Shown here piece after piece: positions 1 to 21,513 of a stretch of DNA of 21,513 bases. The stretch comes from Breznakia blatticola (GTDB lineage: Bacteria > Bacillota_I > Bacilli_A > Erysipelotrichales > Erysipelotrichaceae): assembly GCF_004365815.1 (NCBI RefSeq), contig NZ_SODD01000041.1, positions 1 through 21,513 on the forward strand, written 5' to 3'. The position numbers and the translations under genes were made by a program. The notes under the pieces were generated by a model. That model saw only the letters and a list, made by a program, of their open reading frames with translations, had not been told where the DNA came from and searched no databases. Every line of letters starts with the position of its first letter. The stretch's first letter is position 1.

Positions 1-93
1 TTACCATCACAAGAAATGCTTTAAAGACACATAAATTATTCAGTACTTATCAGTGATTTATCGAGACTTGGTATGCACTGGTTGAATTAAGCC
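1..93. repeat. Left arm of a perfect terminal inverted repeat (93 bp; 95 bp if tt at 94-95 is included)
   Basis: I reverse-complemented 1-93 base by base and it equals 21421-21513 with 0 mismatches and 0 indels. The arm begins at window base 1. It carries the last 17 codons plus TGA (3-56) of an ORF entering from outside the window (...TITRNALKTHKLFSTYQ*). Confidence 0.97.
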
Positions 94-131
94 TTAAGGA
101 TTATAAATTCTACTTACTACTAATTTACGTT

Positions 132-1526
132 TTGGCTGCTACAGCTTTTGTTGCTCAAACATTCATTTCAAAGCTAATCCCTTTGAAATATATAGCTGTA
201 GTTGCTGTTATACTACTTTTGTTAGGACTAGCATTTTGGTTCTTATTATTCAGCAAAAGAATTAATAAATTTAATCGAGCGTTCGGTGTGTTTCTTACAG
301 TTGTACTTGCAATAAGTATGGTTGTTGGAAATGTATATTTGTATTCAACATATAGTGCACTAGGCAGTATAGCAAGTGATGATGATAAAGAAATTGGTAT
401 TTCAATTGTTGTATTAAAAGATTCAAGGTATAAAACAATAGAAGATTTAGATGGACAACCATTTGGTCGAGCAACTAACTTGCCTGATACAAATGTTGAT
501 AAAGTACAAGAAGAGTTATCACAAACATATAGTGACACTCTTGAAATGAAAAATTACGAAAGTGTAAATGATTTTGCTGATGCTCTATACAACAAAGAAG
601 TTGAAGCTATCTTACTAAATGAAGGTAGTCGAGGTTTGTTTGATGAAAAGCATCCTAAATTCAACGAAGAAACTAGAGTGATTAAAACATTTAAGTATAC
701 AGAAGAAGCAGTTAATATTGCTAAACCAGTAGATGTGACAAAAGATCCATTTGTAATGTATGTGTCAGGTATTGATACATACGGATCAGTGCAAACGGTG
801 TCACGTACAGATGTAAATATGCTATTAGCAGTTAATCCAAATACACATCAAATATTGATTGTAAGTATCCCACGTGACTATTATGTGGCACAAACTTGTC
901 AAGGGGATGCTTTGGATAAACTTACACACACTGGAATCTTTGGTATAGATTGTAGTGTGAGTACACTAGAAAATTTCTTTGGTATGGACATTAACTATTA
1001 TGGTCGTGTCAATTTTTCAAGTTTAGTTGATATTGTTGATGCTTTAGGTGGTATCACAGTTAATTCGCCAGTTGCTTTTAGTGGTGGTGAATATTCGTTT
1101 GTTGCAGGGGAAAATCATATTAATGGAAATGAAGCGTTGGCTTTTGTACGTGAAAGGTATTCACTTAGTGGTGGAGATAACGATCGTGTGAAAAACCAAG
1201 CTCGAGTAATTTCGGGAATTATAGATAAAGCAACATCACCATCTATATTAACTGGATATGTTGGATTAATGAATTCACTATCAAATTCATTTCAACTTAA
1301 TATGACAAGTGATGAACTATCTTCACTTGTACAAATGCAATTGAATGATATGAAAGGTTGGAAAATCAACCAAGTAAGTGTTAGCGGATCAGGGGAAACA
1401 AACTGGAGTCCGGCAAATGGATTCAATTCGTATGTAATGCGACCAAATATGGACACAGTCGAATACGCAAAAGAACTAATACAAAAAGTGTTGAATGGGG
1501 AAATCATTGACGAAAGTCAATTATAG
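132..1526 (+). CDS. LytR-CpsA-Psr (LCP) family glycopolymer ligase (CpsA/Wzg-like), apparently missing its native 5' end
   Basis: LCP blocks are visible in the translation: FVMYVSGIDTYG, SRTDVNMLLAVNP, IVSIPRDYYV, DKLTHTGIFG, NGNEALAFVRERYSLSGGDNDRVKNQ. TM helices precede an extracytoplasmic domain, as in streptococcal CpsA. The start is unresolved. TTG132 has no SD and lies inside a hydrophobic helix. The frame is open back to 57 with no ATG, GTG or TTG, and TGA 54-56 lies inside the repeat. Confidence 0.85.
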   Translation: MAATAFVAQTFISKLIPLKYIAVVAVILLLLGLAFWFLLFSKRINKFNRAFGVFLTVVLAISMVVGNVYLYSTYSALGSIASDDDKEIGISIVVLKDSRYKTIEDLDGQPFGRATNLPDTNVDKVQEELSQTYSDTLEMKNYESVNDFADALYNKEVEAILLNEGSRGLFDEKHPKFNEETRVIKTFKYTEEAVNIAKPVDVTKDPFVMYVSGIDTYGSVQTVSRTDVNMLLAVNPNTHQILIVSIPRDYYVAQTCQGDALDKLTHTGIFGIDCSVSTLENFFGMDINYYGRVNFSSLVDIVDALGGITVNSPVAFSGGEYSFVAGENHINGNEALAFVRERYSLSGGDNDRVKNQARVISGIIDKATSPSILTGYVGLMNSLSNSFQLNMTSDELSSLVQMQLNDMKGWKINQVSVSGSGETNWSPANGFNSYVMRPNMDTVEYAKELIQKVLNGEIIDESQL

Positions 1527-1588
1527 AAAATACTCATTCATTATAATTGATATTAAGTAATGATTAATTATGCTTAATTTTATAAAGC

Positions 1589-1658
1589 AAAAGGATAGAT
1601 GAATATCAAGTTCATGTAGTAGTGAAAATGATACAAAACTATCCTTTTATCTTTTTTT
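1589..1658. terminator. Bidirectional hairpin terminator between the convergent LCP and Nudix-fusion genes
   Basis: aaaaggatag (1589-1598) pairs with ctatcctttt (1639-1648). An inner stem atgaa/ttcat sits in the loop. A T-run follows at 1652-1658, and an A-run on the other side serves the minus-strand gene. Confidence 0.55.
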
Positions 1659-1726
1659 GACATAGATGAATAATAAATTATTGTAGTTGCTTAATATTCT
1701 TGTAACAAAAAGAATGATTACTGTTA

Positions 1727-4073: not shown

Positions 4074-4091
4074 TTAGGAGTCTAGATACTG

Positions 4092-5144: not shown

Positions 5145-5192
5145 ACATAAAAATGGGAAAAAATGAGGCTGTAACGAATACAGTCACTAAAT

Positions 5193-5235
5193 AAAAAATG
5201 GAGCTGACCACATATAGTGGATAGCTCCATTTTTT
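5193..5235. terminator. Strong hairpin terminator inside the IS left end (also positioned to terminate galE transcripts)
   Basis: aaaaaatggagct (5193-5205) pairs with agctccatttttt (5223-5235), a 13-bp stem. An inner ccac/gtgg stem is present. The A-run/T-run flanks make it bidirectional. Confidence 0.6.
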
Positions 5236-5249
5236 GGTAAAATATGTTT

Positions 5250-6801
5250 ATGAATACACAAACAAATGAGACTCACAAATATACCCTTCCTCAGCAAGAA
5301 AAGTATACCACTAGATTTATCAATTAAAATTGATAAATCTAGTGATAAGCTTCAATGAAGTGATGGAAGGAATCAATCTAGCAAAGTACCTTGTGAAACA
5401 ACACAAAGGTAGACAAGAATATAATCCCTTCACGATGATAAAAGTTGTCCTATTTACTTATATGAATCAAATCTATTCTTTACGCAAAATTGAAAAAGCT
5501 ATACGAACGGACATACGCTTTATGTGGTTAGCCCAGGAAGAACAACCATCACATATGGCAATTAAACGCTTTATCGATGAAAAGTTAAGATATAATATCA
5601 AGAATATTTATCATGATGTATTAAATCGTATTATTGAACTTGATGAAGTAGATACATCGACTATATACATCGATGGAACAAAACTACAAGCAAATGCTAG
5701 AAAACTTAGTTTTGTGTGGAAAAAACTGCTATAAAAACTAGAGATAAAATATTTGCGAAGTTGAATGAAGATGTACATAAAATACAGGAGTACTTACCTA
5801 TGATACAGGAGAAGGATGTTTGGACATTGGAAGATGTTGATGAAATTAGAAGTCAATAAATTTCATTGTCTGAAAAGGATGGTATCACACACGTCTATGG
5901 CAAGGGAAAGAGAAAAACACCTATTCAACGCATCTATGATACATTAGATAAATACTATATAACTCTAGAAAGTTATCTTGAGCGTATAAGAATTTGCGGG
6001 GATCACAATAGTTATGGCAAGACGGATAACGATGCAACAACGATGCATTTTAAGGAAGATTATTATATGAAAACTGGTGTGTTTCATCCAGCATATAATA
6101 TACAAATTGGAGTGTCAGATGAATATATTATGCATGCAACGGTTCATCAAGATCGTTCTGATTAAAAAACATTCATTCCATTTTTAGAAGAATACAAGAA
6201 ATATCGTGGAATTAACGATTTAAAGAATGTCGTTGCGGATGCAGGGTATGGAAGTTATGACAATTAGTTTTACTGCTTAGAAAACAAGTTGAATAGTTAT
6301 ATTAAATACAACACCTATCGCATAGAGAAAACAGCAAAGTTTAAGAAGAAAATCTACAACAAAAATAACTTCGAAAGAAATGCGTGTGGTGAATACATCT
6401 GTCCAGAAGGAAAATTTTTCCACTATGCATTTGAAACGGAGGATAAAAGAAGCAAATATTATCGTATTAATGAATACTATGAAAGCGAGTGTGATGGATG
6501 TCTTGTGAAAGAGGAATGCACCAAAGCGAAAGGTAATAGAAAAATCACACATAATCCAGTACTACAAGAATTTCAAAAGAATGCAAAAACACTATTGGAT
6601 AGTGAAGATGCTATTCGTTTTAGAACGCAAAGATCCATACAAGTTGAGGGTGCGTTCGGAGTAATCGAACAAGACTTCGGTTATGAGAGAGTGCAACGAA
6701 TAGGGCTAAAAAACGTTAGAATGGAAGTTCTCTTGGTTTGTCTTGGATATAATCTAAAAAAATATCATAATAAGAAGCATAGACCGAACATATTAAACTA
6801 A
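5250..6801 (+). pseudogene. IS1182-family DDE transposase, multiply disrupted
   Basis: The fragments carry family-typical blocks: PLDLSIKI, GRQEYNPFTMIKVVLFTYMNQIYSLRKIEKAIRTDIRFMWLA, IYIDGTKLQANA, NVVADAGYGSYDN, and RSIQVEGAFGVIEQDFGYERVQRIGLKNV...LGYNLKKY. The frame is broken by +1 shifts near 5308 and 5344, a shift in the A6 run at 5720-5725, and in-frame stops TAA 5857-5859, TAA 6163-6165 and TAG 6265-6267. Confidence 0.85.
5309..5344. repeat. 36-bp perfect palindrome (17-bp arms, 2-nt centre) in the 5' coding part of the transposase
   Basis: cactagatttatcaatt (5309-5325), aa, then aattgataaatctagtg (5328-5344). I checked the arms by reverse complementation. Confidence 0.9.
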
Positions 6802-6840
6802 ACATTTTCAATCAAAATCTACATAGATGTTTTCATAATG

Positions 6841-6870
6841 CCTTAAATCCTGATATTTAAGGTGTTTTTT
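6841..6870 (+). terminator. Rho-independent terminator after the transposase ORF, inside the IS right end
   Basis: ccttaaat (6841-6848) pairs with atttaagg (6855-6862) across a 6-nt loop, followed by a T6 run at 6865-6870. Confidence 0.55.
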
Positions 6871-6960
6871 AATATTTTCGTCAAAGCTACAAAAAAAGGG
6901 GGCTGATAAACCCCATAGATCATAAACTAATCTATTTCGTTACAACCCCATTTTTATCTT

Positions 6961-7006: not shown

Positions 7007-7477
7007 ATGAAAAAAGTAATGTTTATATCTAGCACAGGTGGTCATTTATCTGAGTTGTTGCAATTGCAACCTATTTTTGATGAATACGATTATCACATTG
7101 TTACTGAAAAAACTAAATCAAATATAAAGTTAATGGATAGATTCCCTAATCGTATTAGTTTTGTTAAATACGGAACAAAACACAATTTATTCACTTATTT
7201 TTTTATATTTCCATTTAATTGTATTCTATGCTTAATACTTTATATACGATTAAAGCCAGATGTAGTCGTATCTACTGGGGCTCATACAGGCATACCAATG
7301 TTATACATAGCGCATTTTTTTAAGAAAAAAGTAGTCTTTATTGAAACGTTTGCTAATATACGAACAAAATCTCTTTCTGGTAAGCTTGCTTACAAAATTG
7401 CTGACACTTTTATTGTGCAATGGGAAAGTATGCTTGAACTTTATCCAGATGCAATCTATGCGGGGTGGATATTCTAA
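7007..7477 (+). CDS. Alg14-like membrane subunit of a split glycosyltransferase (Cps14F/PssD-like)
   Basis: 156 aa. N-terminal MFISSTGGHLSELLQL motif typical of Alg14-family proteins, a central TM segment, and AGAGGA upstream. Paired with an Alg13-like gene through a TAATG overlap. Confidence 0.8.
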   Translation: MKKVMFISSTGGHLSELLQLQPIFDEYDYHIVTEKTKSNIKLMDRFPNRISFVKYGTKHNLFTYFFIFPFNCILCLILYIRLKPDVVVSTGAHTGIPMLYIAHFFKKKVVFIETFANIRTKSLSGKLAYKIADTFIVQWESMLELYPDAIYAGWIF

Positions 7478-7950
7478 TGATATTTGTTACAGTAGGAACT
7501 CAAGATAAAGGATTCCCTCGATTGCTTGAGGAAATTGAACGACTAATTATTAAAGGAGTTATTAAGGAAGAGGTCATCGCTCAAATTGGTTCTACAAGTG
7601 TAGATTTAAAACATATTAAAACATTTGATTATACAGATATGGAAGAGTTTCATTCATATATAGTGAAGTGCACATTCTTGATTACACATGCTGGGGTTGG
7701 GTCGATTTTAGCTGGATTAATAGAAGATAAAAAAGTAATTGCTGTTGCACGGAGAGAGAAATATGATGAACATGAAAACGAACATCAGACTGAAATTTGT
7801 GAAGTTTTTGATGAAATGGGATACGTTATTGGTTGTTTAGATGCAAATGAATTAGAAGATGCTGTTCAAACAATTGAAATGTTCACTCCGCGGAAATACG
7901 TAAGAAATAACGAATATTTTTGTTCGTTGATGAAGTCAATTATTGGTTAG
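7477..7950 (+). CDS. Alg13-like catalytic subunit (GT28 C-terminal domain; Cps14G/PssE-like)
   Basis: MIFVTVGTQDKGFPRLL... and ITHAGVGSIL motifs. I chose ATG 7477 (overlapping the upstream TAA as TAATG) over the track's GTG 7465. Confidence 0.8.
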   Translation: MIFVTVGTQDKGFPRLLEEIERLIIKGVIKEEVIAQIGSTSVDLKHIKTFDYTDMEEFHSYIVKCTFLITHAGVGSILAGLIEDKKVIAVARREKYDEHENEHQTEICEVFDEMGYVIGCLDANELEDAVQTIEMFTPRKYVRNNEYFCSLMKSIIG

Positions 7951-7961
7951 GAGATTTGCTT

Positions 7962-9131
7962 GTGATTTATATAAAAATAATAATACAGAGTATTTGCTTT
8001 TTTTGTTCTAAAGTGATATCAATTTTGTTTAGCGTATGTGAAATTAAAGGAAATAAAGTTTTCTTTTATAGTTATAGAGGAAATAAATATGCAGATAATC
8101 AGAGATCTTTCACTGAATACTATTTAGAAAAAGGTGAAAATGATTTGGAAATTGTCTGGGGGTATAGAAATGATGCTACTAGAGATTCAATTCCTGAAGG
8201 TGTCAAGAAGGTGAAGATGATTTCTTTCAAGTATTTCTATCACTTATATACATCAAGGTTCATTTCAACTAATCAAAGGATATCGTTTTTGGACTTCATT
8301 AGCAAGAGACATGGGCAAGTATATATTCAAACTTGGCATGCAAGTGCTGCGTTGAAGAAAATTGAAGTAGATGCATTGAGAGATTTACCTGAAATTTATG
8401 TTCGGGAAGCTAAAAGAGATTCAAAAATGACTGATTTAATTATTTCGGGAAGTCGCCAGTATTCTGAAGTATATAAAAATAAATTTTGGTATAATGGTCC
8501 GTTATTAGAGATTGGGACAATGAGAAATGATGTGTTATTTAAAGATAACAATACACGAGTAAAAATAATAAAGCAAAAACTGCAGATTCCGTTAAATCAG
8601 AAAGTTGTATTATATGCTCCAACATTCAGAAATAATCCAGATTTATCAATAAATTTTGATTTTGACTATGGAATGAATTACGAAATGATATCAGAGGCGT
8701 TTGAGAAAATGATTGGTGAGAACATTATACTTGTAAAGCAACATCCCAATTTAAAAAATCACAAGTTGACAGAAACAAAATGGTCGAGAGATATTACAGA
8801 CTATCAAGATATACAAGAACTGTTGTTAATTGCAGATGTACTTGTTACTGATTACTCGTCAGTATTATTTGATTTCATTCTTATGAAGAAACCGCTTTTT
8901 ATTTATGCAAGTGATTTCGATACATACTCACGTGATTTTATGGTTGATTTAAATGAAATGCCTTGTTCAATTTCAAGGAATAACGAACAGTTAAAAGAGT
9001 CAATATTGATTTTTAATGATAAAGAATATCTAGATCGATTATATGATTTTGATAAAAAACATATAGGTACTTTTGAAACAGGAAATGCAAATAAAGATTT
9101 TTATAAGTATTTGAAAAAAAATATAAATTAA
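7962..9131 (+). CDS. CDP-glycerol glycerophosphotransferase family protein (TagB/TagF-like)
   Basis: Family motifs VLYAPTFRNN, LVTDYSSVLFDF and QTWHASAALKK. I chose GTG 7962 (AGGAG 7949-7953, 8-nt spacing) over TTG 7920, which would overlap the upstream gene. Confidence 0.8.
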   Translation: MIYIKIIIQSICFFCSKVISILFSVCEIKGNKVFFYSYRGNKYADNQRSFTEYYLEKGENDLEIVWGYRNDATRDSIPEGVKKVKMISFKYFYHLYTSRFISTNQRISFLDFISKRHGQVYIQTWHASAALKKIEVDALRDLPEIYVREAKRDSKMTDLIISGSRQYSEVYKNKFWYNGPLLEIGTMRNDVLFKDNNTRVKIIKQKLQIPLNQKVVLYAPTFRNNPDLSINFDFDYGMNYEMISEAFEKMIGENIILVKQHPNLKNHKLTETKWSRDITDYQDIQELLLIADVLVTDYSSVLFDFILMKKPLFIYASDFDTYSRDFMVDLNEMPCSISRNNEQLKESILIFNDKEYLDRLYDFDKKHIGTFETGNANKDFYKYLKKNIN

Positions 9132-9145
9132 GAAGAGAGGGAATT

Positions 9146-10657
9146 ATGCGTACAAAAAAAGCTTTGAAAAATATTGTTTTCAATTTTATACAACAGCTTA
9201 TTGGGATTGTAGTTAATTTTATTTTACCACCATTAATAATTGGAAGGTTTGGAGATAGTATAAATGGACTTGTACAAACCATTCGACAAATGATGCAATA
9301 TGCACAATTAACAGGTGCCGGGATTGGAGCGAGTAGTACGTATGCGATGTATAAGCCTTTACACGAACAAAACTACCATACACTAAGTGGTGTATATAAT
9401 GCGACAAAGAAGATGTTCACAAATGCAGGAAATCTCTTCACAATTATAGTTTTAATTCTTTCGGTAGGTTATCCTTTTTTTGTAGAAGGAATAGACTTTA
9501 AAACAGTAGCACTTTCTGTGTTAGTTATTGGAATTTCTGGAATTTCTGAATTTTATGTATATGGGAAATATCAATCAATAATTAATGCAAATCAAGATAA
9601 CTATATAATTGCCATAGCACAAACAATAGGAAATGTTGCAAATGTAGTTGTTTCAGTGATTTTAATATATTTAAACTGTAATATAGTAATTGTTTTACTC
9701 GGTGGGAGTGTGATTTATTTACTTAGGATATTAATTTTGACGAGATTTGTTCGATCTAACTATCAATACTTAGATCCTAATGTAAGACCTATGATGGATT
9801 TAATTGATCAACGTAATGATGCAATTGTTCATCAAATTTCAGGTTTAATTGTTTTAAGTAGTTCTACTATTATTTTAAGTTTGATGTGTGGTTTGGAAGA
9901 AGCAAGTGTGTACTCAGTTTATGCGCTTGTTTTTGGAGGCATTAATACAATATGTCAAATTGTAGCAACTGCAATTTACTCTTCATTTGGGGAAGTGATA
10001 GTAAAAGGGAAAAACGATGTGTTGAAGGCTGCATTTAATGTATATGAATGCTTATTTTTCTTTGCAATTTTTATTGTATTTACTGTTGCTTATGTGATGA
10101 TTATGCCGTTTATAAGTATTTATACGAATAATTTATCAGTAAATGTAGAATACTTTTTACCTTTACTTGGATCTTTGTTTGTATTTGTAGGTATTGCGAA
10201 TAATTTGCGTGTTCCAGCTCGAACTTTGGTGGATGCTGCTGGGCACTTTAAGCGTACGAGAAATCGTTCGGTTGTTGAAATGATAATTAATCTAGTAGGA
10301 CAAATTGTGTTTACTTACATGTTTGGTATTTATGGTGTGCTTTTAGGATGTTTAGCTTCATATTCGTATCGGACAATTGATTTTATTTTATACACAAATA
10401 AGCATATTATCAAACAATCAAATTTAGTGAGTATTCGAAGAATTGTGGTTGGATTTGCCGCTAGTATTTGTATGGTTCTACTTTTGCAAGTAATTGTACC
10501 CTTAAGAATGACTGGATATGTTGAGTGGGTTATTTATGGATTCATTGCCACGTTTGCAACCAGTGTTGTGTTTTTTATTATTTATATTATCTTCGATCAA
10601 AAAACTATGAAGGAGATTTACAATATATTAAAAAATATCTTAAAGAAAAGTAATTAG
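9146..10657 (+). CDS. wzx: Wzx-type oligosaccharide flippase (MOP superfamily polysaccharide biosynthesis protein)
   Basis: 503 aa and polytopic, about 12-14 hydrophobic segments. Typical N-terminus MRTKKALKNIVFNFIQQLIGIVVNFILPPLIIGRFG. Located in a glycan locus. Confidence 0.75.
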   Translation: MRTKKALKNIVFNFIQQLIGIVVNFILPPLIIGRFGDSINGLVQTIRQMMQYAQLTGAGIGASSTYAMYKPLHEQNYHTLSGVYNATKKMFTNAGNLFTIIVLILSVGYPFFVEGIDFKTVALSVLVIGISGISEFYVYGKYQSIINANQDNYIIAIAQTIGNVANVVVSVILIYLNCNIVIVLLGGSVIYLLRILILTRFVRSNYQYLDPNVRPMMDLIDQRNDAIVHQISGLIVLSSSTIILSLMCGLEEASVYSVYALVFGGINTICQIVATAIYSSFGEVIVKGKNDVLKAAFNVYECLFFFAIFIVFTVAYVMIMPFISIYTNNLSVNVEYFLPLLGSLFVFVGIANNLRVPARTLVDAAGHFKRTRNRSVVEMIINLVGQIVFTYMFGIYGVLLGCLASYSYRTIDFILYTNKHIIKQSNLVSIRRIVVGFAASICMVLLLQVIVPLRMTGYVEWVIYGFIATFATSVVFFIIYIIFDQKTMKEIYNILKNILKKSN

Positions 10658-10688: not shown

Positions 10689-10711
10689 TGATTGGATTGG
10701 AGGTTTTAGAC

Positions 10712-11401: not shown

Positions 11402-11411
11402 AGGTAAGAAT

Positions 11412-11774: not shown

Positions 11775-13978
11775 TGTTTGAAGTAATAAAATTAACGTTA
11801 ATAACAGTTATACTATTTTTTTCATCGAAAGCGTTTGGTGAACTTTTAAATATGAAATGGAAGAATCCATTTTCAAGTGTTTTAGGAGTTGGATATTTAG
11901 CTAATTTAGCTTGTTTTTTTGTTATTACATTACCAGTAATGATTTTTAAACTCTCAACACAATATCTCTTTGTGTTGGGACTTTTGTATTTGTGTATTTT
12001 AATCCTTGCAATTTATAAAACTATACAAAAAAAAGTTTTATTTCGATTCGATAAAATTGACATAGTTATACTAAGTTGTTCAGTTGTGTTACTTGGTTTT
12101 TACGGATTTGTGCTAGATTTCGGTTTGATTGAAACTTATGATTCGATATTTTATAGTAGTTTGACAAACAATGCGTCAAATTCACATGCTATATCTGTAG
12201 TGGATCCGTATACGGGATTGTCCAATTTGCAAAATTTCTACAAATATATGTCATACTACTATTTAGCTAGTTTTTATGGAGTGCTTTTTCAACTCAAACA
12301 CGCATACTTGGTTCTAGTTTGGTCTTTTACGTTTATGAACTTCATATTGTTCTTTAATACAGCATTCACTGTATGCCGAATTTCGAAGAACAAAGTGGTA
12401 AATAATATAATAAGTGTGTTTTATTTGTCACTGATATTGAGCATGTTTCGCGCTCCATTCAATGCGTTGCACTTAACAACGTTTGTTGTTTCAATATATG
12501 TGTTTAGATTTACTTTTCGTTTATTTAAGAAGAATTATGACATTCTTCCATATTTAATCATTACAATTATTGCATGTATTTCATTCACATCAACATCATT
12601 ATTTACCATTTTGCCTTTTGTTTTGGTGCTGTTAATTACAAATGCATGCATAAAAGATAGAATTCCTTATAAATATTTATACTATTTAACAATTCCGGTG
12701 TTGGTACTCGGTTTCTTGTATGTGTATGAATCACTGAAGAATCCTTTTGTACTAGTTGCGGCAATTGCTATCTTGATTTGCTTTAGTCTTTTATTTCTAT
12801 GGAAGCCGTTTGATACTATCGTTAGATATGGAAGCTTATTTTTAGGAATTATAGTATTTACTGTCTTTTTAATCCCTGATAAATTACCAATTCAAAATCT
12901 TATTTCTAACAACTTTATGCAATCAACAGCTATCAGTAAAAATGAATCAATTCCAGAAAATGAATCAGGAGATATAATTGAAGATTGTTTGGGTATTCAT
13001 TCGCTGAAGGTAAAGAACAATGATTCAATGTATGACTATAAAAAAGGTTTAGGGTCTTCGATAAACTATATGATAGGAGATGGCGATTTAAAAATTACTA
13101 CAATAATGATTACTTTCTCTCATTCTATTCCAAAGTATGGAGGAATGTTATTTTTGTTGATTTACGGATTTATCAAAAGAAGAAAATCATATGCCTTTGT
13201 TTCATATGTAGTATACTTATTATTGTTTAATAATCCGCTAGTTGCTAATGGTGTGAATTTACTTACTTTTGGACTGAGTCAAAGGATTGTACTGTTTTTT
13301 AATACGTATTATGCTATTTTGGGAGTTAAGTACTTTTTTGATTACTTTATCGATTATGTGTGGACTAAGTATAAGATTTCAGTTAGTTTACAAAGTGTTT
13401 TACGCTTTACATTTTATAGTTTAACGATATGTTTGATTACTTCAATATGTACATATGGAATAAATATTATGCCAAAAAGTTATACAAATTATAATTTCTT
13501 ATACAAAGTTCCGAATAGAATCGTAGAGCTCGAGGATAAAATATATGAACTTAATCTAGATAATGGTAAAGATTATAAGGAACGCTACTTTTTCACAGAA
13601 AGTGCATTCAATGTGAAATTGCTAGATCGAAGAGGTGAGAGCAAGGTTACTGTAATGAACAGCAAGGAATATATGAATTACTTCGGGAACCGAGATGTTA
13701 TCACAGATAAAACAATAATTAATGACTATTTCGAAAGTGAAGGTTTGTATAGTTTGAACTCAGTTGTAAATAAATGCAATTTGATGGAATTAAATGAAGA
13801 GCAAATAAAGCCAAATTGCGTTTGTTCTATAAAGAATATTGTTAAAAATTATGGTGTTGATTATATAGTTACAAAAGCTCCAAAAAATAGTGTATTTAAA
13901 GAAAGTTTACAAGATGATTTTTTAATAGTTTGGGAAAATGATGATTACATAATATTAAGAAATAAGGAGAGTGTATAG
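11774..13978 (+). CDS. Large polytopic membrane protein with a C-terminal soluble domain; candidate GT-C-type extracytoplasmic glycosyltransferase or polymerase
   Basis: 734 aa with many hydrophobic segments through about residue 560, then a hydrophilic ~170-aa tail. Coupled to the upstream gene by TAATG. Paralogous in N- and C-terminal features to 18587-20455. No family motif that I can name with certainty. Confidence 0.55.
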   Translation: MFEVIKLTLITVILFFSSKAFGELLNMKWKNPFSSVLGVGYLANLACFFVITLPVMIFKLSTQYLFVLGLLYLCILILAIYKTIQKKVLFRFDKIDIVILSCSVVLLGFYGFVLDFGLIETYDSIFYSSLTNNASNSHAISVVDPYTGLSNLQNFYKYMSYYYLASFYGVLFQLKHAYLVLVWSFTFMNFILFFNTAFTVCRISKNKVVNNIISVFYLSLILSMFRAPFNALHLTTFVVSIYVFRFTFRLFKKNYDILPYLIITIIACISFTSTSLFTILPFVLVLLITNACIKDRIPYKYLYYLTIPVLVLGFLYVYESLKNPFVLVAAIAILICFSLLFLWKPFDTIVRYGSLFLGIIVFTVFLIPDKLPIQNLISNNFMQSTAISKNESIPENESGDIIEDCLGIHSLKVKNNDSMYDYKKGLGSSINYMIGDGDLKITTIMITFSHSIPKYGGMLFLLIYGFIKRRKSYAFVSYVVYLLLFNNPLVANGVNLLTFGLSQRIVLFFNTYYAILGVKYFFDYFIDYVWTKYKISVSLQSVLRFTFYSLTICLITSICTYGINIMPKSYTNYNFLYKVPNRIVELEDKIYELNLDNGKDYKERYFFTESAFNVKLLDRRGESKVTVMNSKEYMNYFGNRDVITDKTIINDYFESEGLYSLNSVVNKCNLMELNEEQIKPNCVCSIKNIVKNYGVDYIVTKAPKNSVFKESLQDDFLIVWENDDYIILRNKESV

Positions 13979-13979
13979 T

Positions 13980-14813
13980 ATGAGTTTAAGCAATATTACA
14001 ATGATAATAAAAACATTTGAACGACCAGATTGTATACGAAAACTAGTAAAATCAATATATAAATACTATCCTGAAGCAATTGTCTTGATTGGTGATGATA
14101 GTGAAGTGTCATGCAAAGATGAGATTGAAGGTAAATATAAAAATAAACAAATAAAAGTTTATGAGCTACCGAAAGATAGTGGACTATCATTTGGTAGAAA
14201 CTTTTTATTGGAAAAAGTCGATACACCTTATTTCTTATTATTAGATGATGATTTTGTTTTTGACAATAGAACTAAAATAGTTGAGTGCTTGAACGTTTTT
14301 ATGAAAAATGATATCGATATACTAGGTGGTTTGTTCAGAAATTATAAGATTATCAATCATTGGTATGACAATCTTATTGTATTCGCACAAAAAATACTTC
14401 GTTATGAACTGACTACAAATTACATTGGAACTATTGATTTTGATGAAAATACGAAGATACTTACTACAAAGTATGAATTACATCGATTTCCTAAATATGA
14501 AAAAACTGATATTGTGCATAATTTCTTTATAGCAAAGACAGATAAGGTACGAAACGAGAACTTATGGGATAATGATCTTAAGCTTCAAGAGCATACGCCA
14601 TTCTTTTTTGAAGCCAAGAAAAAAGGATTTAAAGTATACACAACAAATCAACTAAGTGTAAGACATATGCCAAAGCGAATGAAAAAATACAATAGTTTCC
14701 GTGGTAGGGATTTTGTCCAAGTATTTATGCATAAATACAATATTAATCAAATCAGAATGTCAAATGATGACGGAGTTAATAAAGTAATTAATAAGAAGGA
14801 TAAATATGATTAG
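13980..14813 (+). CDS. GT-A fold (GT2-like) glycosyltransferase
   Basis: ITMIIKTFERPDCIRKLVKSI, VLIGDDSEV and LLLDDDFVF (DxD) motifs. I chose ATG 13980 (AAGGAG 13964-13969) over GTG 13971. Confidence 0.6.
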   Translation: MSLSNITMIIKTFERPDCIRKLVKSIYKYYPEAIVLIGDDSEVSCKDEIEGKYKNKQIKVYELPKDSGLSFGRNFLLEKVDTPYFLLLDDDFVFDNRTKIVECLNVFMKNDIDILGGLFRNYKIINHWYDNLIVFAQKILRYELTTNYIGTIDFDENTKILTTKYELHRFPKYEKTDIVHNFFIAKTDKVRNENLWDNDLKLQEHTPFFFEAKKKGFKVYTTNQLSVRHMPKRMKKYNSFRGRDFVQVFMHKYNINQIRMSNDDGVNKVINKKDKYD

Positions 14814-15807
14814 TATTATTGTACCTGTGTATAATGCAGAACGTTATGTTGAACAATTAGTTAATAATATCAAAAATCAAACACACAAAGATTTTGAGGC
14901 TATTTTAGTTAACAATAATTCTAAAGATAATACAGAAAAACGTTTAAAAGAGTTAATCAAAGATGATTCGCGTTTTAGAATTCTTTTTGAAAGTAAGCAA
15001 GGTCCAAACTATGCAAGATTGAAAGGATTTGAATCTGCGATTGGTGAATATGTATACTTTTTTGATAGCGATGACCGAATTTATCCACATACAATAGAAA
15101 ACTTGTATAGAAATGCAATTGAAAATCATAGTGATATAGTTATTGCAGATTATGTTGAAATTGACGAAACAGGAGAAATTACTAAACGATGTAAAGGAAT
15201 TAATTATTCAATAAATGATTCTTCGAGTATATTTGATCCTGAAAAGACATTTTTTGTAAAGATGCCACTTTGGAATAAATTGATTAAGAGAAATATGCTT
15301 AAAAAAGAATATTTTGCTTTTTCTTCAATTGGTGAAGATATGCTTATATCTTTATGTTGTGTTGCTAATTCAACTAAAATATCATATTTAGACAAAGAAA
15401 TATATCAGTACTTAGTAACTGAAAACGGATTATCATACGAAGTTACACTAAAGAATTCTTTAGGGATTCTTGAAACTTTCAAAGTGATGGATTTAATCTT
15501 CGATAATGAGTTCAGAAAGCGCTATGATGAACAAAAAGTATATATTCAAACACAACATTTGTTGTTTCGTTTGATGCGCTCAATATTACTAAATAAGAAC
15601 GACAGAAAAATTGCATATATGCAGTTGACGAATTTCTTGAAGACAAGTAATTATAAAAATAACGTTTACTATAAAAAAAGTATTCCTTTTAAAGGAGCAA
15701 GTTTTCTTTTAACAAACTTATTCATGTATAAAGTAAGCAGCGTAATTTTAAAACCATTTCTAGTAAATAAAACATTACAAAAAGTGTTAAAGAAATTAGA
15801 TAAATAG
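14806..15807 (+). CDS. GT2 family glycosyltransferase
   Basis: ISIIVPVYNAERYVEQLVNNIKNQTHKDFEAILVNNNSKDNT and FFDSDD motifs. The ATG overlaps the upstream stop (ATGATTAG). Confidence 0.85.
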   Translation: MISIIVPVYNAERYVEQLVNNIKNQTHKDFEAILVNNNSKDNTEKRLKELIKDDSRFRILFESKQGPNYARLKGFESAIGEYVYFFDSDDRIYPHTIENLYRNAIENHSDIVIADYVEIDETGEITKRCKGINYSINDSSSIFDPEKTFFVKMPLWNKLIKRNMLKKEYFAFSSIGEDMLISLCCVANSTKISYLDKEIYQYLVTENGLSYEVTLKNSLGILETFKVMDLIFDNEFRKRYDEQKVYIQTQHLLFRLMRSILLNKNDRKIAYMQLTNFLKTSNYKNNVYYKKSIPFKGASFLLTNLFMYKVSSVILKPFLVNKTLQKVLKKLDK

Positions 15808-15815
15808 GAGAATTT

Positions 15816-16586
15816 ATGAATATTGAAGTACTCATGTCGACAATGAAACGTTCATCTATAAATGAATTGAAGCTAAAGGAGAAAAATATTTCGACTCCCC
15901 TGTTAGTTGTGAATCAACTCGCTGACTCAGATTCTCACGTGATAGAGGATGAATGTAGATTCTTTTCCTATACCGAAAAAGGATTATCAAGATCAAGAAA
16001 CATACTGCTTAAAAATGCAAAAGGTGATGTTGGGATAATTACTGATGATGATATTACATTTATTGCAGAATATAAAACGATTTTATGTAACGCATATGAA
16101 AAGCATCCTGAGGCTGGTATTATTACATTCAATCTAAAAATAGGAGATGATACAAAAGGCTGGGACAAAGAGTTTACACATACTTTTTGGTCGTTAATGA
16201 GTGTAGCATCCTGTCAAATAAGTATAAAACCATCAGTAATAAGAAATTTAGATATTCATTTTAATGAGAGCTTTGGTTTAGGAGCAAGTTTTAAAAGTGG
16301 TGAAGAAAATCTTTTTCTGAATGATTGTCGAAAAAAAGGTGTAACTATTATTCATGTTCCAATTACATTGTGTTCTCATCCACACGAGGATACAACTGGA
16401 GAACTATGGAGTGCTGATTTAGTAAAGTCAAAAGGTGCACTTTCAACTGCTTTATTAGGTAAGAAACATGTTTTATTTCTATTGTATTTTATATTGGTAA
16501 AGCATAAAGAGTATAAAAAAACAATGAAAATAAAGGAGTTTTACAGAAATTATATGAATGGTGTGCATGAATATAGGAGTAGATAA
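15816..16586 (+). CDS. Probable GT-A-like glycosyltransferase
   Basis: 256 aa with a GIITDDDITF (DxD) motif and a GEENLFLNDCRKKG block. GGAG is 5 nt upstream. The family assignment is tentative. Confidence 0.5.
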   Translation: MNIEVLMSTMKRSSINELKLKEKNISTPLLVVNQLADSDSHVIEDECRFFSYTEKGLSRSRNILLKNAKGDVGIITDDDITFIAEYKTILCNAYEKHPEAGIITFNLKIGDDTKGWDKEFTHTFWSLMSVASCQISIKPSVIRNLDIHFNESFGLGASFKSGEENLFLNDCRKKGVTIIHVPITLCSHPHEDTTGELWSADLVKSKGALSTALLGKKHVLFLLYFILVKHKEYKKTMKIKEFYRNYMNGVHEYRSR

Positions 16587-17659
16587 TGAGCAAATGTAAG
16601 GTAGCAATATTCCAGTATGATCTCGGAGTTGGTGGAATTCAAAAATCATTGATTAATTTATTAAATGCTATTGATGAAAAGAAATATGATATTGATTTGT
16701 TTTTGTTTTCGAAAGAAGATTTTTATGAAACTAGTTTACCAAAATTTGTTACAGTTAATTATATACATTCCTTTCCAAGTTGGATGAAAATTTTGCCTTT
16801 TAGAATAGCGAAACGATTTGCGCATAAATTAAATGACACAATCTATGATGTTGCGATTGATTTTAATTCATATCAAAATGAATGTGCTGCATTTGCATTG
16901 CTTTGTAATGCGAATAGGCATATTATTTGGTGTCATAATGATGTAAAAATTAAACAAAAGAATGAGGCAAGATATCGATATTTATGGCTGATGATGAAAT
17001 CGAAGTTTTACTTTTTTGATAATATCTGTATTGTTTCCAAGGGAGCAAAAAAAAGCTTTGTGGAAGTAACAGGAATTGAGGAAAAAAAAGTACACGTATT
17101 ACCTAATATAATTAATACAGATGAAATTTTTCAATATAAGAATCAAGTTAATTCAATAGAAGTTGATAATAATAAATACAATTTAATCACAGTTGGGCGG
17201 ATATCACATCAAAAAGGACTAGATATTTTAGTTGAACTGTTTGGAAAAGTTGTTGAGAAAAGAAAGGATATACACTTATATATTGTCGGAGATGGTGACG
17301 ATAAGAAAAAATTGATTGAAGAAGTACAAAAATTAAAACTTAATAATTTTGTTACATTTACTGGATATTTGAAAAATCCATTTAGTTTAATGAATAATAT
17401 GGATGGATTTATATTAACATCAAGATATGAAGGTCAAGGAATGGTATTGTTAGAAGCAAAAAGTCTTGGTCTTGATGTTTTTATTCCAAAGCATTTAGAA
17501 CAATACGTCGATAACATCTCTGGACAAGTGGATTTAATTAATTCCTTACTTAATGCGTCTAAAAATGCAATAAAACGCTATGATGATTTGTCTACGTATA
17601 ATAATTCGATAATTGAGAAATTTGATCAATTGTGTACTGAGGAGACCAACTATGAATGA
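16586..17659 (+). CDS. GT4 (GT-B, group 1) glycosyltransferase
   Basis: ITVGRISHQKGLDILV, LYIVGDGDDKKKL and SRYEGQGMVLLEAKSLG (EX7E) motifs. TAATG overlap with the upstream gene. Confidence 0.85.
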   Translation: MSKCKVAIFQYDLGVGGIQKSLINLLNAIDEKKYDIDLFLFSKEDFYETSLPKFVTVNYIHSFPSWMKILPFRIAKRFAHKLNDTIYDVAIDFNSYQNECAAFALLCNANRHIIWCHNDVKIKQKNEARYRYLWLMMKSKFYFFDNICIVSKGAKKSFVEVTGIEEKKVHVLPNIINTDEIFQYKNQVNSIEVDNNKYNLITVGRISHQKGLDILVELFGKVVEKRKDIHLYIVGDGDDKKKLIEEVQKLKLNNFVTFTGYLKNPFSLMNNMDGFILTSRYEGQGMVLLEAKSLGLDVFIPKHLEQYVDNISGQVDLINSLLNASKNAIKRYDDLSTYNNSIIEKFDQLCTEETNYE

Positions 17660-18587
17660 TGTATCTGTAATTATTCCGGTTTACAATGCTGAATTATACA
17701 TTGCTAGATGTGTTGATTCATTATTAAATCAAAAAACACAATATTCATATGAAATAATTTGCGTTGATGACGGATCAACAGATAATAGTGCACAAATATT
17801 AATGAAATATAATGGCATGATACGTGTGATTTTGAGTGAAAACAATGGACCAGGACATGCACGAAATTTAGCTGTGAATAACTCAAATAGTACTTATCTA
17901 ATGTTTGTAGATGCAGATGATTATGTGAGTGATGATTTTATAGAAATGCATATGACAGCATTGAAAGAAACTAACTCAGATATATGTATTTCGGATTTTT
18001 ATCGTGTCACTCAAGATAAAAAAAAATATGTTTCAAAAGGAAAATATAAAATATATCTAAAAGGTCAATTTCAGGAAGTATTGTTAATGGAATTTCATTC
18101 TGTTAATAAAGCAATTAAAAGAAGTGTTTTCATTAATTATCCTGAGAATATTTTTTTTGAAGATATGGTAGCCATGTCTGAATCAATTTTGAATGCGAAC
18201 AAGATTGTGAAAATTGAGAAAGCTGGTTATTATTATAATTGTGTTGAAAATTCTACAACGAATACTTTAAGTGACAAAATATATGATATTTATTACGCCA
18301 CAATGATGATGGAACCTAGTTTTGTAAGAAATGGTTATAGTCAAGAAATTGAGTATCTATTCGTTAATGGAATTCTTGTGGATTTATGTATTAAACTTAT
18401 AAAAGCAAAAGGAATCAAAGCTAAACAAGAAGTATATGAGTACTTAAATGAAGTTAGCATAAAATACCCAAGGTGGTATCGAAATAAATATGTAAAAGAT
18501 ACTAGATTTATGAAAAGGATATACTTATTCTTATTAAGAAAACATCTGTTTTTAATCGTTATGCTAGTTTTTCGGAGGAAAAAATAA
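17652..18587 (+). CDS. GT2 family glycosyltransferase
   Basis: VSVIIPVYNAELYIARCVDSLLNQ, IICVDDGSTDNS and FVDADDY motifs. I chose ATG 17652 (GGAG upstream, ATGAATGA overlap) over 17613. Confidence 0.85.
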   Translation: MNDVSVIIPVYNAELYIARCVDSLLNQKTQYSYEIICVDDGSTDNSAQILMKYNGMIRVILSENNGPGHARNLAVNNSNSTYLMFVDADDYVSDDFIEMHMTALKETNSDICISDFYRVTQDKKKYVSKGKYKIYLKGQFQEVLLMEFHSVNKAIKRSVFINYPENIFFEDMVAMSESILNANKIVKIEKAGYYYNCVENSTTNTLSDKIYDIYYATMMMEPSFVRNGYSQEIEYLFVNGILVDLCIKLIKAKGIKAKQEVYEYLNEVSIKYPRWYRNKYVKDTRFMKRIYLFLLRKHLFLIVMLVFRRKK

Positions 18588-20455
18588 TGGAACTATTTTT
18601 TATTATTTATGCATTGTTAATGTTCTTTATCTCTAATGGATTAGGTAAATTAATTCTAAAAAAGGAAAGTAAGATATATCCGTTCCGTTCGTTATTAGGG
18701 TTTTGCCTGTTCATTTCCACACTACAATTGGGATATTATCCTATGCAGTATTTTCAGGTATCTATTAACTTTGTTTACATTTGGACGATGATAGTCTTTA
18801 TTGTTTCATTTGTTATTGGTGTACGATTTTTTTCGAAAGATGACTTTAAAATCTTTAAAAGATGGGAATTTTACTTCTTGTTTTTCTTAGTATTCTTTTT
18901 TGTGAAAATTTTGCCAATAAATGAAGCTGGTGATGATTGGTTTTATATGCCATTAATCATGGACAACGTTGATGCATCAAGAATAAATTCAATAGATCCA
19001 AGAACTGGGTGGAATTTAGATATTGGGAGTATATGGAGTTATCAAGGATACTATCTATTGGCAACATGTATATATAAGATTCAAAGTTTATTTGATACTT
19101 CTGTAAATGCAATTTTTGTTTCATTCCGTTCCACTTTCTCTTTGTTAATGATTCTTTTTTCTTCAATTGTATTGTCCGAAATACCGAATATATTGAAGAT
19201 AAAAAAACGTTCTATTAATATTATTATCCAATTACTATCAATTTACTTGGTTGGTTTCTTAGAATGGTCACACATTTATTGGGGTTCTTTTGCATCATTC
19301 ACTACATTTTTTCCTTTAATGGTGTTTTCAATAAATGATTATGTAAAAGTTCCAACACAAAGAAAGGCAATAATTATTGCAATAATAAATGGAGCAATAA
19401 TATCACTGTTCTCATCAGCGTTATTCTTAACTGCATTTTTAATGTATTCCTTTTTTACATGCAGCATATTCAGGAGAAATGTACGTTTTATAGATTATTA
19501 TATAATGCTTATTCCATCATTGATATATCTTTCATTATTTGTGGAAAAACCATATCTTATTCTTTTAGTGGTTCTTTTTTTCTATATTGCAAGCAAGTTT
19601 TTGTCGACTAAAATTGATCTATTTTTTAATAAATATGGAATGTATTTTGTAATAGCAATTCCAATACTAATAGTTTTAATTACTCCTATTCTTGGTATGA
19701 AATATACATGGTCATTGTATCGGTTAGGTTATATATATTTGCTATTTAATATTAGTATTTCCATTTTTATTATGTATGAAATAATGAAGAAGAAAAGAAC
19801 TATAGAACCACTTTTATTAATGTTTGTAGTATATGTGATTACTTTTTTTAATCCGCTAGTTTGTCCATTTATTTCAAATTACTTTACAAGTGATCAAGTC
19901 TATTATAGATTGTTTTACATAACAAAAAATCCATTAGTCATTGCTTTTATTTTTAAATATATTTATGTGCATTACTTTAAAAATAAAAATGCACAAATTG
20001 TATACAGTATATTTATATCTTCGTTAATGTGTTACTATTTACTTGTTTTTCTTCAAGGAGTAAATTTCAATGTCGAATTCTCAAATAGTTATAATTATAT
20101 TTTAAGAGAAGATGATGATGAGTTAGCTGTTGGTTCTTTTCTAGCAATAGAAAAATTTGACTGCGACACGTTGATATGGAGTGATTATATACAACCACGA
20201 ATGTTTAATCAAAAAGTGAAGGCTCGGGTTTCACGATACGCAGAAACTGATCAAGGTATTGAAGTGATTGATCAGTTTCTGCATTCAGAAGAAGAGTTAC
20301 CAACTGAAAAATTTATTGATAGTAAAAACGCAATTCATAATTCTGGAGTTTCTTTATTGATTACAAGAAACAATTCAATAATTAAGGAGAGAGTTACTTT
20401 AATATCAGATATAATATATGAGAATGATTCCTATATAGTTTATAAAGTGAGGTAA
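18587..20455 (+). CDS. Second large polytopic membrane protein, paralogous in architecture to 11774-13978
   Basis: 622 aa. Its N-terminus FFISNGLGKLILKKESKIYPFRSLLG compares with FFSSKAFGELLNMKWKNPFSSVLG in the other protein. Its C-terminus IIYENDSYIVYKVR compares with IVWENDDYIILRNK. Many TM segments precede a ~140-aa hydrophilic tail. TAATG coupling. Confidence 0.55.
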   Translation: MELFFIIYALLMFFISNGLGKLILKKESKIYPFRSLLGFCLFISTLQLGYYPMQYFQVSINFVYIWTMIVFIVSFVIGVRFFSKDDFKIFKRWEFYFLFFLVFFFVKILPINEAGDDWFYMPLIMDNVDASRINSIDPRTGWNLDIGSIWSYQGYYLLATCIYKIQSLFDTSVNAIFVSFRSTFSLLMILFSSIVLSEIPNILKIKKRSINIIIQLLSIYLVGFLEWSHIYWGSFASFTTFFPLMVFSINDYVKVPTQRKAIIIAIINGAIISLFSSALFLTAFLMYSFFTCSIFRRNVRFIDYYIMLIPSLIYLSLFVEKPYLILLVVLFFYIASKFLSTKIDLFFNKYGMYFVIAIPILIVLITPILGMKYTWSLYRLGYIYLLFNISISIFIMYEIMKKKRTIEPLLLMFVVYVITFFNPLVCPFISNYFTSDQVYYRLFYITKNPLVIAFIFKYIYVHYFKNKNAQIVYSIFISSLMCYYLLVFLQGVNFNVEFSNSYNYILREDDDELAVGSFLAIEKFDCDTLIWSDYIQPRMFNQKVKARVSRYAETDQGIEVIDQFLHSEEELPTEKFIDSKNAIHNSGVSLLITRNNSIIKERVTLISDIIYENDSYIVYKVR

Positions 20456-20457
20456 AA

Positions 20458-21345
20458 ATGAGAAGACATGCATACTTAATCATGGCACATAACAATTTCT
20501 CTATATTAAAAAGATTAATTTCTATTTTAGATGATGAAAGAAACGATATCTTTATTCATATTGATGCAAAAATTGAGTGTTTTGACTCCTCTGAATATGC
20601 CGGTATTGCAAAAAGGTCAAAAGTACAATTCATTGATAGAATTCCTGTATATTGGGGAGATTATTCACAAATACAGTGTGAGTATAATCTACTTCGCGCT
20701 GCGAACGGAGATTATGAATATTATCATCTTCTCTCAGGAACTGATTTGCCAATAAAAACACAAGATGAGATACACAGTTTTTTTAATCAATTGAGTGGCA
20801 AAAGCTTAATTCAATTTGTATCAAGGTCATATGCAGAGAAAACTAGTGCTTACTATAGACTAAAGCGTTATAAGTTCTTTCAAAAATATGTCAAGTCAAA
20901 TAAAGTGTTACCCAAATTTTGTGCTAATTTATTTCAACACATATTTATGCCGCTACAGACTATTTTCGGTGTTGATCGTACAAAAAAGAAAAATATATCA
21001 ATCGGTTTTGGTGCAAACTGGTTTAGCTTATATAAGGATGATTATAAGCTAGTTATCGAAAAACAGTGCTTTGTTGAAGAAAATTTCAAACATACATTGT
21101 GTGCAGATGAATTATTCATTCAGACTATATTGTTGACATTTGGAAATGTTGACGTAACTTTTGATGAAGACTTTAATGGCAAATCGCATGGAAGATATAT
21201 AGATTGGAATAGAGGAAATCCATATATTTTTCGAACAGAGGATTATGATTTGCTAATTAATAGTCAGTGTTTATTTGCTAGAAAATTTGATGAAAATATA
21301 GATTTTAATATTATTAATAAAATCTATGATAATATAAAAAAATAA
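20458..21345 (+). CDS. GT14-like (Core-2/I-branching enzyme family) glycosyltransferase
   Basis: AYLIMAHNNFSILKRLISILDDERNDIFIHIDAK, YHLLSGTDLPIK and GANWFSL blocks resemble bacterial Branch-domain proteins, from memory. Confidence 0.65.
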   Translation: MRRHAYLIMAHNNFSILKRLISILDDERNDIFIHIDAKIECFDSSEYAGIAKRSKVQFIDRIPVYWGDYSQIQCEYNLLRAANGDYEYYHLLSGTDLPIKTQDEIHSFFNQLSGKSLIQFVSRSYAEKTSAYYRLKRYKFFQKYVKSNKVLPKFCANLFQHIFMPLQTIFGVDRTKKKNISIGFGANWFSLYKDDYKLVIEKQCFVEENFKHTLCADELFIQTILLTFGNVDVTFDEDFNGKSHGRYIDWNRGNPYIFRTEDYDLLINSQCLFARKFDENIDFNIINKIYDNIKK

Positions 21346-21371
21346 CAGCATTATACTTTTTTTTGAATATG

Positions 21372-21402
21372 TATAATGTTATCATTATCAAGTTAAGGAG
21401 GG
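21372..21402 (+). promoter_or_regulatory. -10-like element and strong SD preceding the orphan start codon
   Basis: TATG-TATAAT, with the hexamer at 21372-21377 and no good -35. AAGGAGGG at 21395-21402 lies 3 nt before ATG 21406, the same spacing style as the wzx RBS (GAGGGAATTATG). Confidence 0.4.
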
Positions 21403-21405
21403 AAT

Positions 21406-21456
21406 ATGAGAATTAAAAAAGGCTTAATTCAACCAGTGCATACCAAGTCTCGATAA
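21406..21456 (+). pseudogene. Orphan gene start: ATG + 4 native codons (MRIKK), then read-through into the right repeat arm to TAA
   Basis: ATG AGA ATT AAA AAA | GGC TTA ATT CAA CCA GTG CAT ACC AAG TCT CGA TAA. Codons 6-16 are repeat sequence. It reads as a real translation start cut off at 21420/21421. Confidence 0.5.
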
Positions 21457-21513
21457 ATCACTGATAAGTACTGAATAATTTATGTGTCTTTAAAGCATTT
21501 CTTGTGATGGTAA
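21421..21513. repeat. Right arm of the perfect terminal inverted repeat
   Basis: Exact reverse complement of 1-93, ending on the last base of the window. The inner terminus reads GGCTTAATTCAACC... going outward. Confidence 0.97.

Follow-up and report, generated by a model that had tools for sequence, protein, structure and literature searches.

A locus for polysaccharide synthesis in Breznakia blatticola is closed at both ends by a perfect inverted repeat, which raises the question of whether this repeat is a structure of the genome or a product of sequence assembly. The locus lies on a complete draft contig of 21,513 nt, hereafter called the window, which carries the genes for an LCP (LytR-CpsA-Psr) protein (TDW13940.1, WP_243833761.1) and a GT14 protein. 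By direct sequence comparison, the first 95 nt of the window are the exact reverse complement of the last 95 (95/95), and the outermost bases of the two arms are the first and the last base of the contig. This confirms the first-pass annotation, in which perfect terminal inverted repeats of 93/95 bp had been described. A match of this length and quality cannot be chance. The arms are 21,323 nt apart, their identity ends at base 96, and elsewhere in the window no second inverted repeat was detected that is longer than 40 nt or shows more than 90% complementarity over at least 25 nt. Stop codons occur in all six frames of the arm, in which one open frame spans 17 codons; the arm is non-coding. 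Scans of the window, arm included, revealed neither an Rfam family nor a tRNA, and a search of the arm for an outward or hybrid promoter gave a single weak match on the minus strand, fewer than in shuffled sequences.

Gene content of the locus

The features of the window are compiled in Table 1. Products encoded by the glycan-synthesis block are Alg14/Alg13-like proteins, a glycerophosphotransferase, a flippase, GT2 and GT4 glycosyltransferases, a DUF2304 protein, two large membrane proteins and a GT14 'Branch' enzyme. A GalE gene is also present, and GC skew is positive over nearly the whole window. The interior had initially been described as a polysaccharide locus with a Nudix fusion gene and a dead IS. 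According to the Pfam scans this description is broadly right, except that the NUDIX match of the ORF in question (732 aa, minus strand) reached 17.1 bits and hence remained under the cut-off of 21.1. The last gene of the block is 100% identical to the entry 'core-2/I-Branching enzyme [Breznakia blatticola]' while the next homologue, which is the best one outside this species entry, shares only 57% identity; in the relatives, no context comparable to the right end was found. Between Breznakia strains, the glycan loci that follow LCP are entirely different.

Table 1. Features of the 21,513-nt window of B. blatticola
Feature	Position	Strand	Basis or description
Left arm	1..95	.	1-93, end portion of a repeated element that is not LCP; the TT at 94-95 additionally fits a native LCP codon
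LCP (LytR-CpsA-Psr) gene, 5'-truncated	96..1526	+	orthologues of relatives with PF03816, 96% protein identity (P0001)
Decayed IS1182-family copy, unrelated to the arms	5159..6955	+	three ORF fragments with DUF772 and DDE_Tnp_1_6; 20-nt TIRs
Glycan-synthesis block, about 14 genes	7007..21345	+ (all)	Pfam scans
Start of a second gene, presumably cut by the right arm	21395..21420	+	read from the sequence
Right arm	21419..21513	.	left-arm 95-mer in reverse complement, up to the last base of the contig

The left junction

In the relatives, LCP is a chromosomal gene that immediately follows the gene for an M29 aminopeptidase. DNA homology of the window to these relatives amounts to 94-95% and is confined to positions 94-1528. 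Intact LCP genes, which are present on seven related contigs, possess 22 additional coding nucleotides and a promoter region that are absent from the window. The arm stands in their place, so that the promoter and the first 22 nt of LCP (8 codons, MNKTRKWF in the relatives) are replaced. As the first canonical start codon remaining is a TTG at 132, the product would comprise 464 aa compared to 484 aa in the relatives; in the source record, LCP is annotated in two versions of 464 and 447 aa. Homology to the relatives' LCP genes begins only at 94/95, which marks the arm as foreign to this locus.

The exact border depends on the relative chosen for comparison since homology to the intact genes begins either at position 94 (L001-L005, L009) or at 95 (L006, L007). 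The split into 93 and two further bases, already proposed in the first-pass annotation, is therefore real. On the basis of this alignment, the two T at 94-95 may belong to LCP itself (TGG TTT AAG in the relatives), which would reduce the foreign arm to 93 nt followed by two coincidental bases. Alternatively, the arm comprises 95 nt and its final two bases match LCP by accident. The M29 aminopeptidase of B. blatticola (TDW09101.1) is encoded on a separate contig of 9,155 nt. Such a separation of M29 and LCP is as expected if a repeat lies between the two genes.

Probable assembly origin of the terminal repeat

Neighbouring edges of a SPAdes graph share K bases, and a contig broken off by a repeat that could not be resolved includes exactly K bases of it. 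The genome looks like a JGI submission, judging from the TDW accessions and the IMG-style product names. According to the published methods for JGI isolates, SPAdes is run with --careful and -k 25,55,95, and contigs shorter than 1 kb are dropped. With 95 nt, the arm is exactly as long as the final k of this recipe, whose use for the present genome we infer from the style of accessions and product names together with the match of 95. The second line of evidence is the Logan contig SRR8436184_177 (k=31), to which the GalE gene of the window led. This contig corresponds to window positions 66-6836 without any mismatch over 6,771 nt and starts 30 nt (k-1) before 95/96, the point at which the two junction sequences diverge. 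Logan represents an independent assembler rather than independent data, and the assignment of the run to the library of this genome is presumed from the 100% identity over 6.8 kb.

Most likely, the inverted repeat of 95 bases is the fixed SPAdes overlap left at an unresolved repeat. Both ends of the contig would meet the same vertex of the graph, once in each orientation, so that the 95-mer is written at the start and its reverse complement at the end. Length (95), identity (100%) and terminal position of the arms would then be properties of the assembly and not of the DNA. As a single vertex would have been written out twice, the arms would be identical by construction, and neither their length nor their perfection, both due to the overlap left by the assembler, would be biologically informative. 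Taken together, we assign a probability of roughly 0.85 to the reading that the arms are the contig-end K overlap at a collapsed repeat node, with inverted copies of an element, probably an IS, beside both ends of the locus. Of the four explanations offered initially, this corresponds to a contig whose two ends run into one and the same collapsed repeat node, and it is supported by the completeness of the contig, the agreement of the arm with K=95 and the break of the k=31 assembly k-1 bases from the branch point. By contrast, the argument that identical arms beside a heavily decayed IS1182 copy imply a recent duplication or ongoing homogenisation fails, as a single vertex would stand twice in the output.

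The same behaviour is known from other K-length terminal overlaps of SPAdes, for instance from the small single-copy region of plastomes with a collapsed IR and from circular plasmid contigs, which likewise show an exact repeat of K on their end bases. An inverted orientation results when the two contig ends are attached to a collapsed repeat node on its same side, as would be the case here. No substantive difference between such de Bruijn systems and the B. blatticola contig was apparent. The main lesson is one of caution: perfect repeats, inverted or direct, that occupy the very ends of a contig and whose odd length equals a common assembler k (here 95, as set for SPAdes at JGI) should be suspected to be graph overlaps before a biological meaning is considered. 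Readings at risk are inverted terminal repeats, composite transposons, invertons and 'complete' linear genomes.

An assembly origin of the arms has to be distinguished from a pure misassembly, in which one of the two junctions would be chimeric and absent from the genome. Nothing direct speaks for this, only the general possibility of such errors at contig ends bounded by repeats. On the other hand, each junction was the sole continuation kept at K=95, and the k=31 assembly branches exactly where the junctions diverge, as expected if both are contained in the reads. The chance of a chimeric junction thus appears to be close to negligible.

The right junction

At the right end of the window, a Shine-Dalgarno sequence (AAGGAGG, 21395-21401) is followed by an ATG at 21406 and the codons MRIKK; the frame enters the arm and stops at 21456. 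If this start represented the missing 5' end of LCP, the molecule would be circular. This candidate was rejected because the alignment of the right end to LCP upstream regions (scores 17-20, shuffle p 0.01-0.04) was no better than that of the control, the upstream region of the Alg14-like gene (16-20); a true orthologue of the LCP 5' end would be expected to reach about 95% identity.

The result bears on the proposal that the arms belong to one element with perfect TIRs of at least 95 bp inserted into a circular or tandemly arrayed molecule of 21.3 kb. From the logic of the assembly, a circular molecule with such an insertion would yield the same contig. Joining the right to the left end, however, does not rebuild LCP, as promoter, ribosome binding site and start (MRIKK versus MNKTRKWF) are different. 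Moreover, LCP is located on the chromosome beside the M29 peptidase gene in the relatives, and neither genes for replication or partition nor phage genes are among the ORFs of the window; plasmid or phage matches were likewise missing. With an MRIKK start that is not the LCP 5' end and nothing replicon-like in the window, this proposal is disfavoured and must be regarded as extremely unlikely. Inverted terminal repeats of a linear replicon or a phage were rejected as well: the ORFs are all related to glycan synthesis, GalE, LCP or IS remnants, LCP is chromosomal in the relatives, and matches to phages or plasmids were missing.

Possible mobilisation or inversion of the locus

One rival reading is a functional composite transposon in the manner of Tn10 or Tn5, with the glycan locus captured between two inverted copies of one IS that can mobilise it as a whole. 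The topology of the contig implies that the same end of the repeat faces inward on both sides, as in these two transposons, and the complete difference between the glycan loci of Breznakia strains downstream of LCP would also suit such a scenario. Unlike in Tn10 and Tn5, the putative cargo of B. blatticola starts inside a native chromosomal LCP gene at its usual position. The left junction interrupts a 94-95% identical orthologue which forms the conserved head of the locus in all relatives, and the cargo is not placed differently from the relatives, in which this LCP border has M29 as its neighbour. Since the left border lies inside the orthologous LCP gene, it appears that the segment stands where it natively belongs and has received an IS insertion, rather than having been delivered from elsewhere. 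A composite transposon is thus quite unlikely, and from the corresponding initial proposal only one part stands: two inverted repeat copies very probably flank the locus, but its 'capture' is not supported, given a junction inside the native LCP gene.

It is similarly unlikely that recombination between the inverted copies flips the 21.3-kb locus so that both orientations coexist. Long pairs of inverted repeats are substrates for RecA-mediated inversion, and the assembly graph should fit either orientation equally well. No ORF of the window, however, contains a recombinase or invertase domain, the transposase-like ORFs being only the decayed IS1182 fragments; the window lacks the adjacent gene of this kind that site-specific invertible segments (invertons, shufflons) have. 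Because the start at the right end is not the LCP 5' end, an inversion would restore neither LCP nor the MRIKK gene, and no switch function is apparent. The near-continuous positive GC skew is consistent with a stable block of co-oriented genes. Altogether, it is improbable that the two inverted copies make the locus a mobilisable or invertible module. If they did, exchange or flipping of IS-bracketed cassettes downstream of LCP would help to explain the differences between Breznakia strains, and the locus gains interest only if the segment is shown to invert or move.

The putative flanking element

Under the preferred reading, a collapsed repeat node at both contig ends, a repeated element would be present in the genome at least twice, flanking the 21.3-kb glycan locus with the same end turned inward on either side. 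From the contig topology, at least two inverted copies flanking the locus are likely. The left copy would lie inside the native LCP gene after nucleotide 22, and the right copy would cut another gene after codon 5. The element is probably an insertion sequence, as suggested by one non-coding end of 93-95 nt. A non-coding arm is as expected of the subterminal part of an IS, and the loss of homology at 94/95, within a gene that is intact on seven related contigs, has the form of an IS-type interruption of a sequence continuous in the relatives.

Several collections were searched for the parent element. There was no exact match of a 29-mer or of the terminal 20-mer in genome contigs (a collection without the source genome), none in metagenome contigs with the 29-mer or a wobble-tolerant pattern of the 17-codon frame, none for four arm patterns in viral contigs, and none by blastn against plasmids and phages. 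The internal IS1182 copy was ruled out as the origin of the arm since it possesses its own, different 20-nt TIRs (5159-5178 and 6936-6955, 90% complementary), and its ends are unlike the arm.

The cps/eps loci of Firmicutes are commonly bordered by IS elements. The B. blatticola locus resembles such capsule and cell-wall polysaccharide loci in that a repeated non-coding end interrupts genes at both borders. It differs from them in that neither a transposase nor a second end or target-site duplication of the element was seen in the window, and that no sequence relative of the element occurs in the collections searched. What remains on the biological side is routine for Firmicutes drafts, namely a repeat, probably an IS, that interrupts LCP at the edge of a cell-wall glycan locus specific to the strain. 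A further likeness to polysaccharide loci of Firmicutes with IS elements is the additional, decayed IS1182 copy inside the B. blatticola locus.

Origin of the terminal inverted repeats

By direct sequence comparison, the left arm and the reverse complement of the right arm were identical at 95 of 95 positions. The arms occupy the very first and very last bases of the window and identity stops at base 96, which confirms the perfect terminal repeats described in the first-pass annotation. The next-best inverted repeats revealed by a scan of the whole window were at most 40 nt long with approximately 73% identity. All six frames of the arm hold stop codons, and scans of the window assigned it neither to an Rfam family nor to a tRNA. 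Searches for its parent element in plasmid, phage, viral, genome and metagenome collections, which apparently lack the source genome, gave 0 matches.

The window comprises one entire contig of the draft genome of Breznakia blatticola and is no excerpt from a longer one. This bacterium is a member of the Erysipelotrichaceae isolated from an insect gut. The TDW-type accessions and names like 'LytR family transcriptional attenuator' and 'aminopeptidase II' presumably reflect the JGI submission style. In a SPAdes graph, adjoining edges overlap by the final k-mer size K, and a contig halted at a repeat carries the final K-mer of the repeat as its own start or finish. A unique segment between two inverted copies of one repeat joins the same vertex with both ends, so that one contig end shows the K-mer and the opposite end its reverse complement. 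Plastomes show this behaviour with their small single-copy region. According to published methods, the JGI isolate recipe runs SPAdes with '--careful -k 25,55,95' and drops contigs below 1 kb. At 95 nt, the arms match the last k of this recipe exactly.

Contig SRR8436184_177 of the Logan assemblies (k=31) covers window 66-6836 (6,771 nt) without a single mismatch. Judged by this sequence identity, SRR8436184 is the same strain and probably even the same library. The contig begins exactly k-1 = 30 nt before the position (95/96) at which the junction sequences diverge, so a different assembler branches at the same base. Such a matching branch is as expected with both junctions present in the reads and makes a false junction unlikely. 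The perfection of the arms, their 95-nt length and their exact terminal position are therefore best explained as a by-product of assembly with K=95, in agreement with the earlier suggestion of an assembly-graph artefact at a collapsed repeat. As the arms are most likely one vertex printed twice, their identity says nothing about gene conversion or the recent duplication or ongoing homogenisation that had been deduced from it.

Genes at the two junctions

At the left end, the arm cuts a LytR-CpsA-Psr (LCP) gene. In close relatives (five Logan metagenome contigs, Breznakia sp. GCA_029893755.1 and two ENA contigs), an M29 aminopeptidase gene is directly followed by an intact LCP gene of 484 aa, beyond which lie glycan loci of differing content. 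The DNA of the window is 94-95% identical to that of the relatives (80% for a more distant pair) from position 94 or 95 to 1528, just past the LCP stop. Homology to all relatives ends within 2-6 nt of this stop codon. The five metagenome contigs, which carry a 96%-identical LCP, all terminate exactly 326 nt past the LCP stop. The LCP gene is thus the conserved border of a hypervariable Breznakia glycan locus, whose content is wholly different between strains.

According to the junction alignment, the arm replaces the LCP promoter region and the first 22 coding nucleotides (MNKTRKWF). Together with the start of homology at 94/95, this gives a foreign part of 93 nt. The bases TT at 94-95 may belong to the LCP codon TTT; in that case the two further matching bases of the opposite arm are a 1-in-16 coincidence, or vice versa. 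Both readings fit a K=95 vertex. The 464-aa annotation agrees with the first canonical start codon that LCP still has. In B. blatticola, the M29 aminopeptidase gene is located on a separate contig of 9,155 nt, as expected with the repeat now lying between the two genes. Capture of the glycan locus by a composite transposon, as had been proposed, is not supported because the left border lies within the orthologous LCP gene heading the locus and the segment is thus apparently in its native place. The segment may be mobile, though with low probability.

The right arm apparently cuts a second gene, which reads MRIKK before entering the arm. This start was considered as the missing 5' end of LCP and rejected, since it resembled LCP upstream regions no more than a control upstream region of the window did. 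Window 21346-21420, which holds the start of the cut gene and the sequence ahead of it, showed a weak likeness to the LCP upstream region of a related contig (L009, 11308-11360; shuffle p 0.01-0.04), the control scoring the same; it probably reflects a generic similarity of promoters, ribosome-binding sites and lysine-rich N-termini. As the right-end start is not the LCP start, circular or tandem joining leaves LCP unrebuilt. A single element with long terminal inverted repeats in a circle or tandem array, another earlier proposal, is for this reason disfavoured, and the chromosomal synteny of LCP in relatives and the lack of replicon genes in the window also argue against a circular molecule. 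The best homologue for the right part of the locus was 57% identical; a close relative was not found.

The underlying repeat

The most economical reading is a repeated element that is present at least twice and faces inward with the same end on both sides of the locus, one copy lying within LCP and the other within the MRIKK gene. The element is probably an insertion sequence, which would fit its non-coding subterminal sequence, its repetition and the cutting of genes otherwise found intact. The 93-95 nt of it in the window showed neither a transposase nor a second end or a target duplication. Recombination between the two inverted copies could physically invert the segment, and either orientation is compatible with the assembly. 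However, inversion would restore neither disrupted gene, the window contains no invertase and GC skew is uniformly positive across almost the whole window. A repeat, probably an insertion sequence, that borders and disrupts a strain-specific glycan locus is commonplace biology.

Interior of the locus

Features of the window
Feature	Position	Size	Remarks
Left arm	1-95	95 nt	
LCP gene, first remaining start	132		TTG
End of LCP gene and of homology to relatives	1526-1528		protein in same 90% cluster as TDW13940.1 and WP_243833761.1 (Breznakia blatticola)
ORF	1727-3925	732 aa	sole minus-strand gene; lowest-GC part of left half (~28%)
GalE gene	interior		Pfam scan
IS1182-family copy, decayed	5159-6955		DUF772, DDE_Tnp_1_6; three ORF fragments
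IS1182 terminal inverted repeats	5159-5178, 6936-6955	20 nt	90% complementary
Co-oriented glycan block			Pfam: Alg14/Alg13-like, glycerophosphotransferase, flippase, several GT2 and GT4, DUF2304, GT14 'Branch'
Large hydrophobic ORF	11774-13978	734 aa	glycan block; no Pfam match
Large hydrophobic ORF	18587-20455	622 aa	glycan block; no Pfam match
Last gene			100% identical to 'core-2/I-Branching enzyme [Breznakia blatticola]'
Shine-Dalgarno sequence	21395-21401		AAGGAGG, strong; opens gene cut by right arm
Start codon of MRIKK gene	21406		ATG
Right arm	21419-21513	95 nt	

Pfam scans recovered the GalE gene, the decayed IS1182 copy and the glycan genes, and detected no recombinase, replication or phage genes in the window. 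The 'Nudix fusion' label of the 732-aa ORF is plausible but unproven: no Pfam family reached the threshold, the N-terminal 535 aa were without any match and the C-terminal 197 aa gave a sub-threshold NUDIX hit (E 0.006, 17.1 bits; cut-off 21.1). The two large, strongly hydrophobic ORFs may encode polymerases, ligases or GT-C-type membrane enzymes.

The arm was ruled out as an IS1182 end, the ends of IS1182 being unrelated to it. The Logan contig of the same strain stops at window 6836, inside the IS1182 copy. The 30-mer 6807-6836 therefore probably recurs elsewhere in the genome, in further IS1182 copies sharing this 3' part. A near-perfect palindrome (5301-5352) with 25-nt arms, 88% complementary, and a 2-nt spacer falls just within the left portion of the decayed IS1182 copy, directly before the first ORF fragment.
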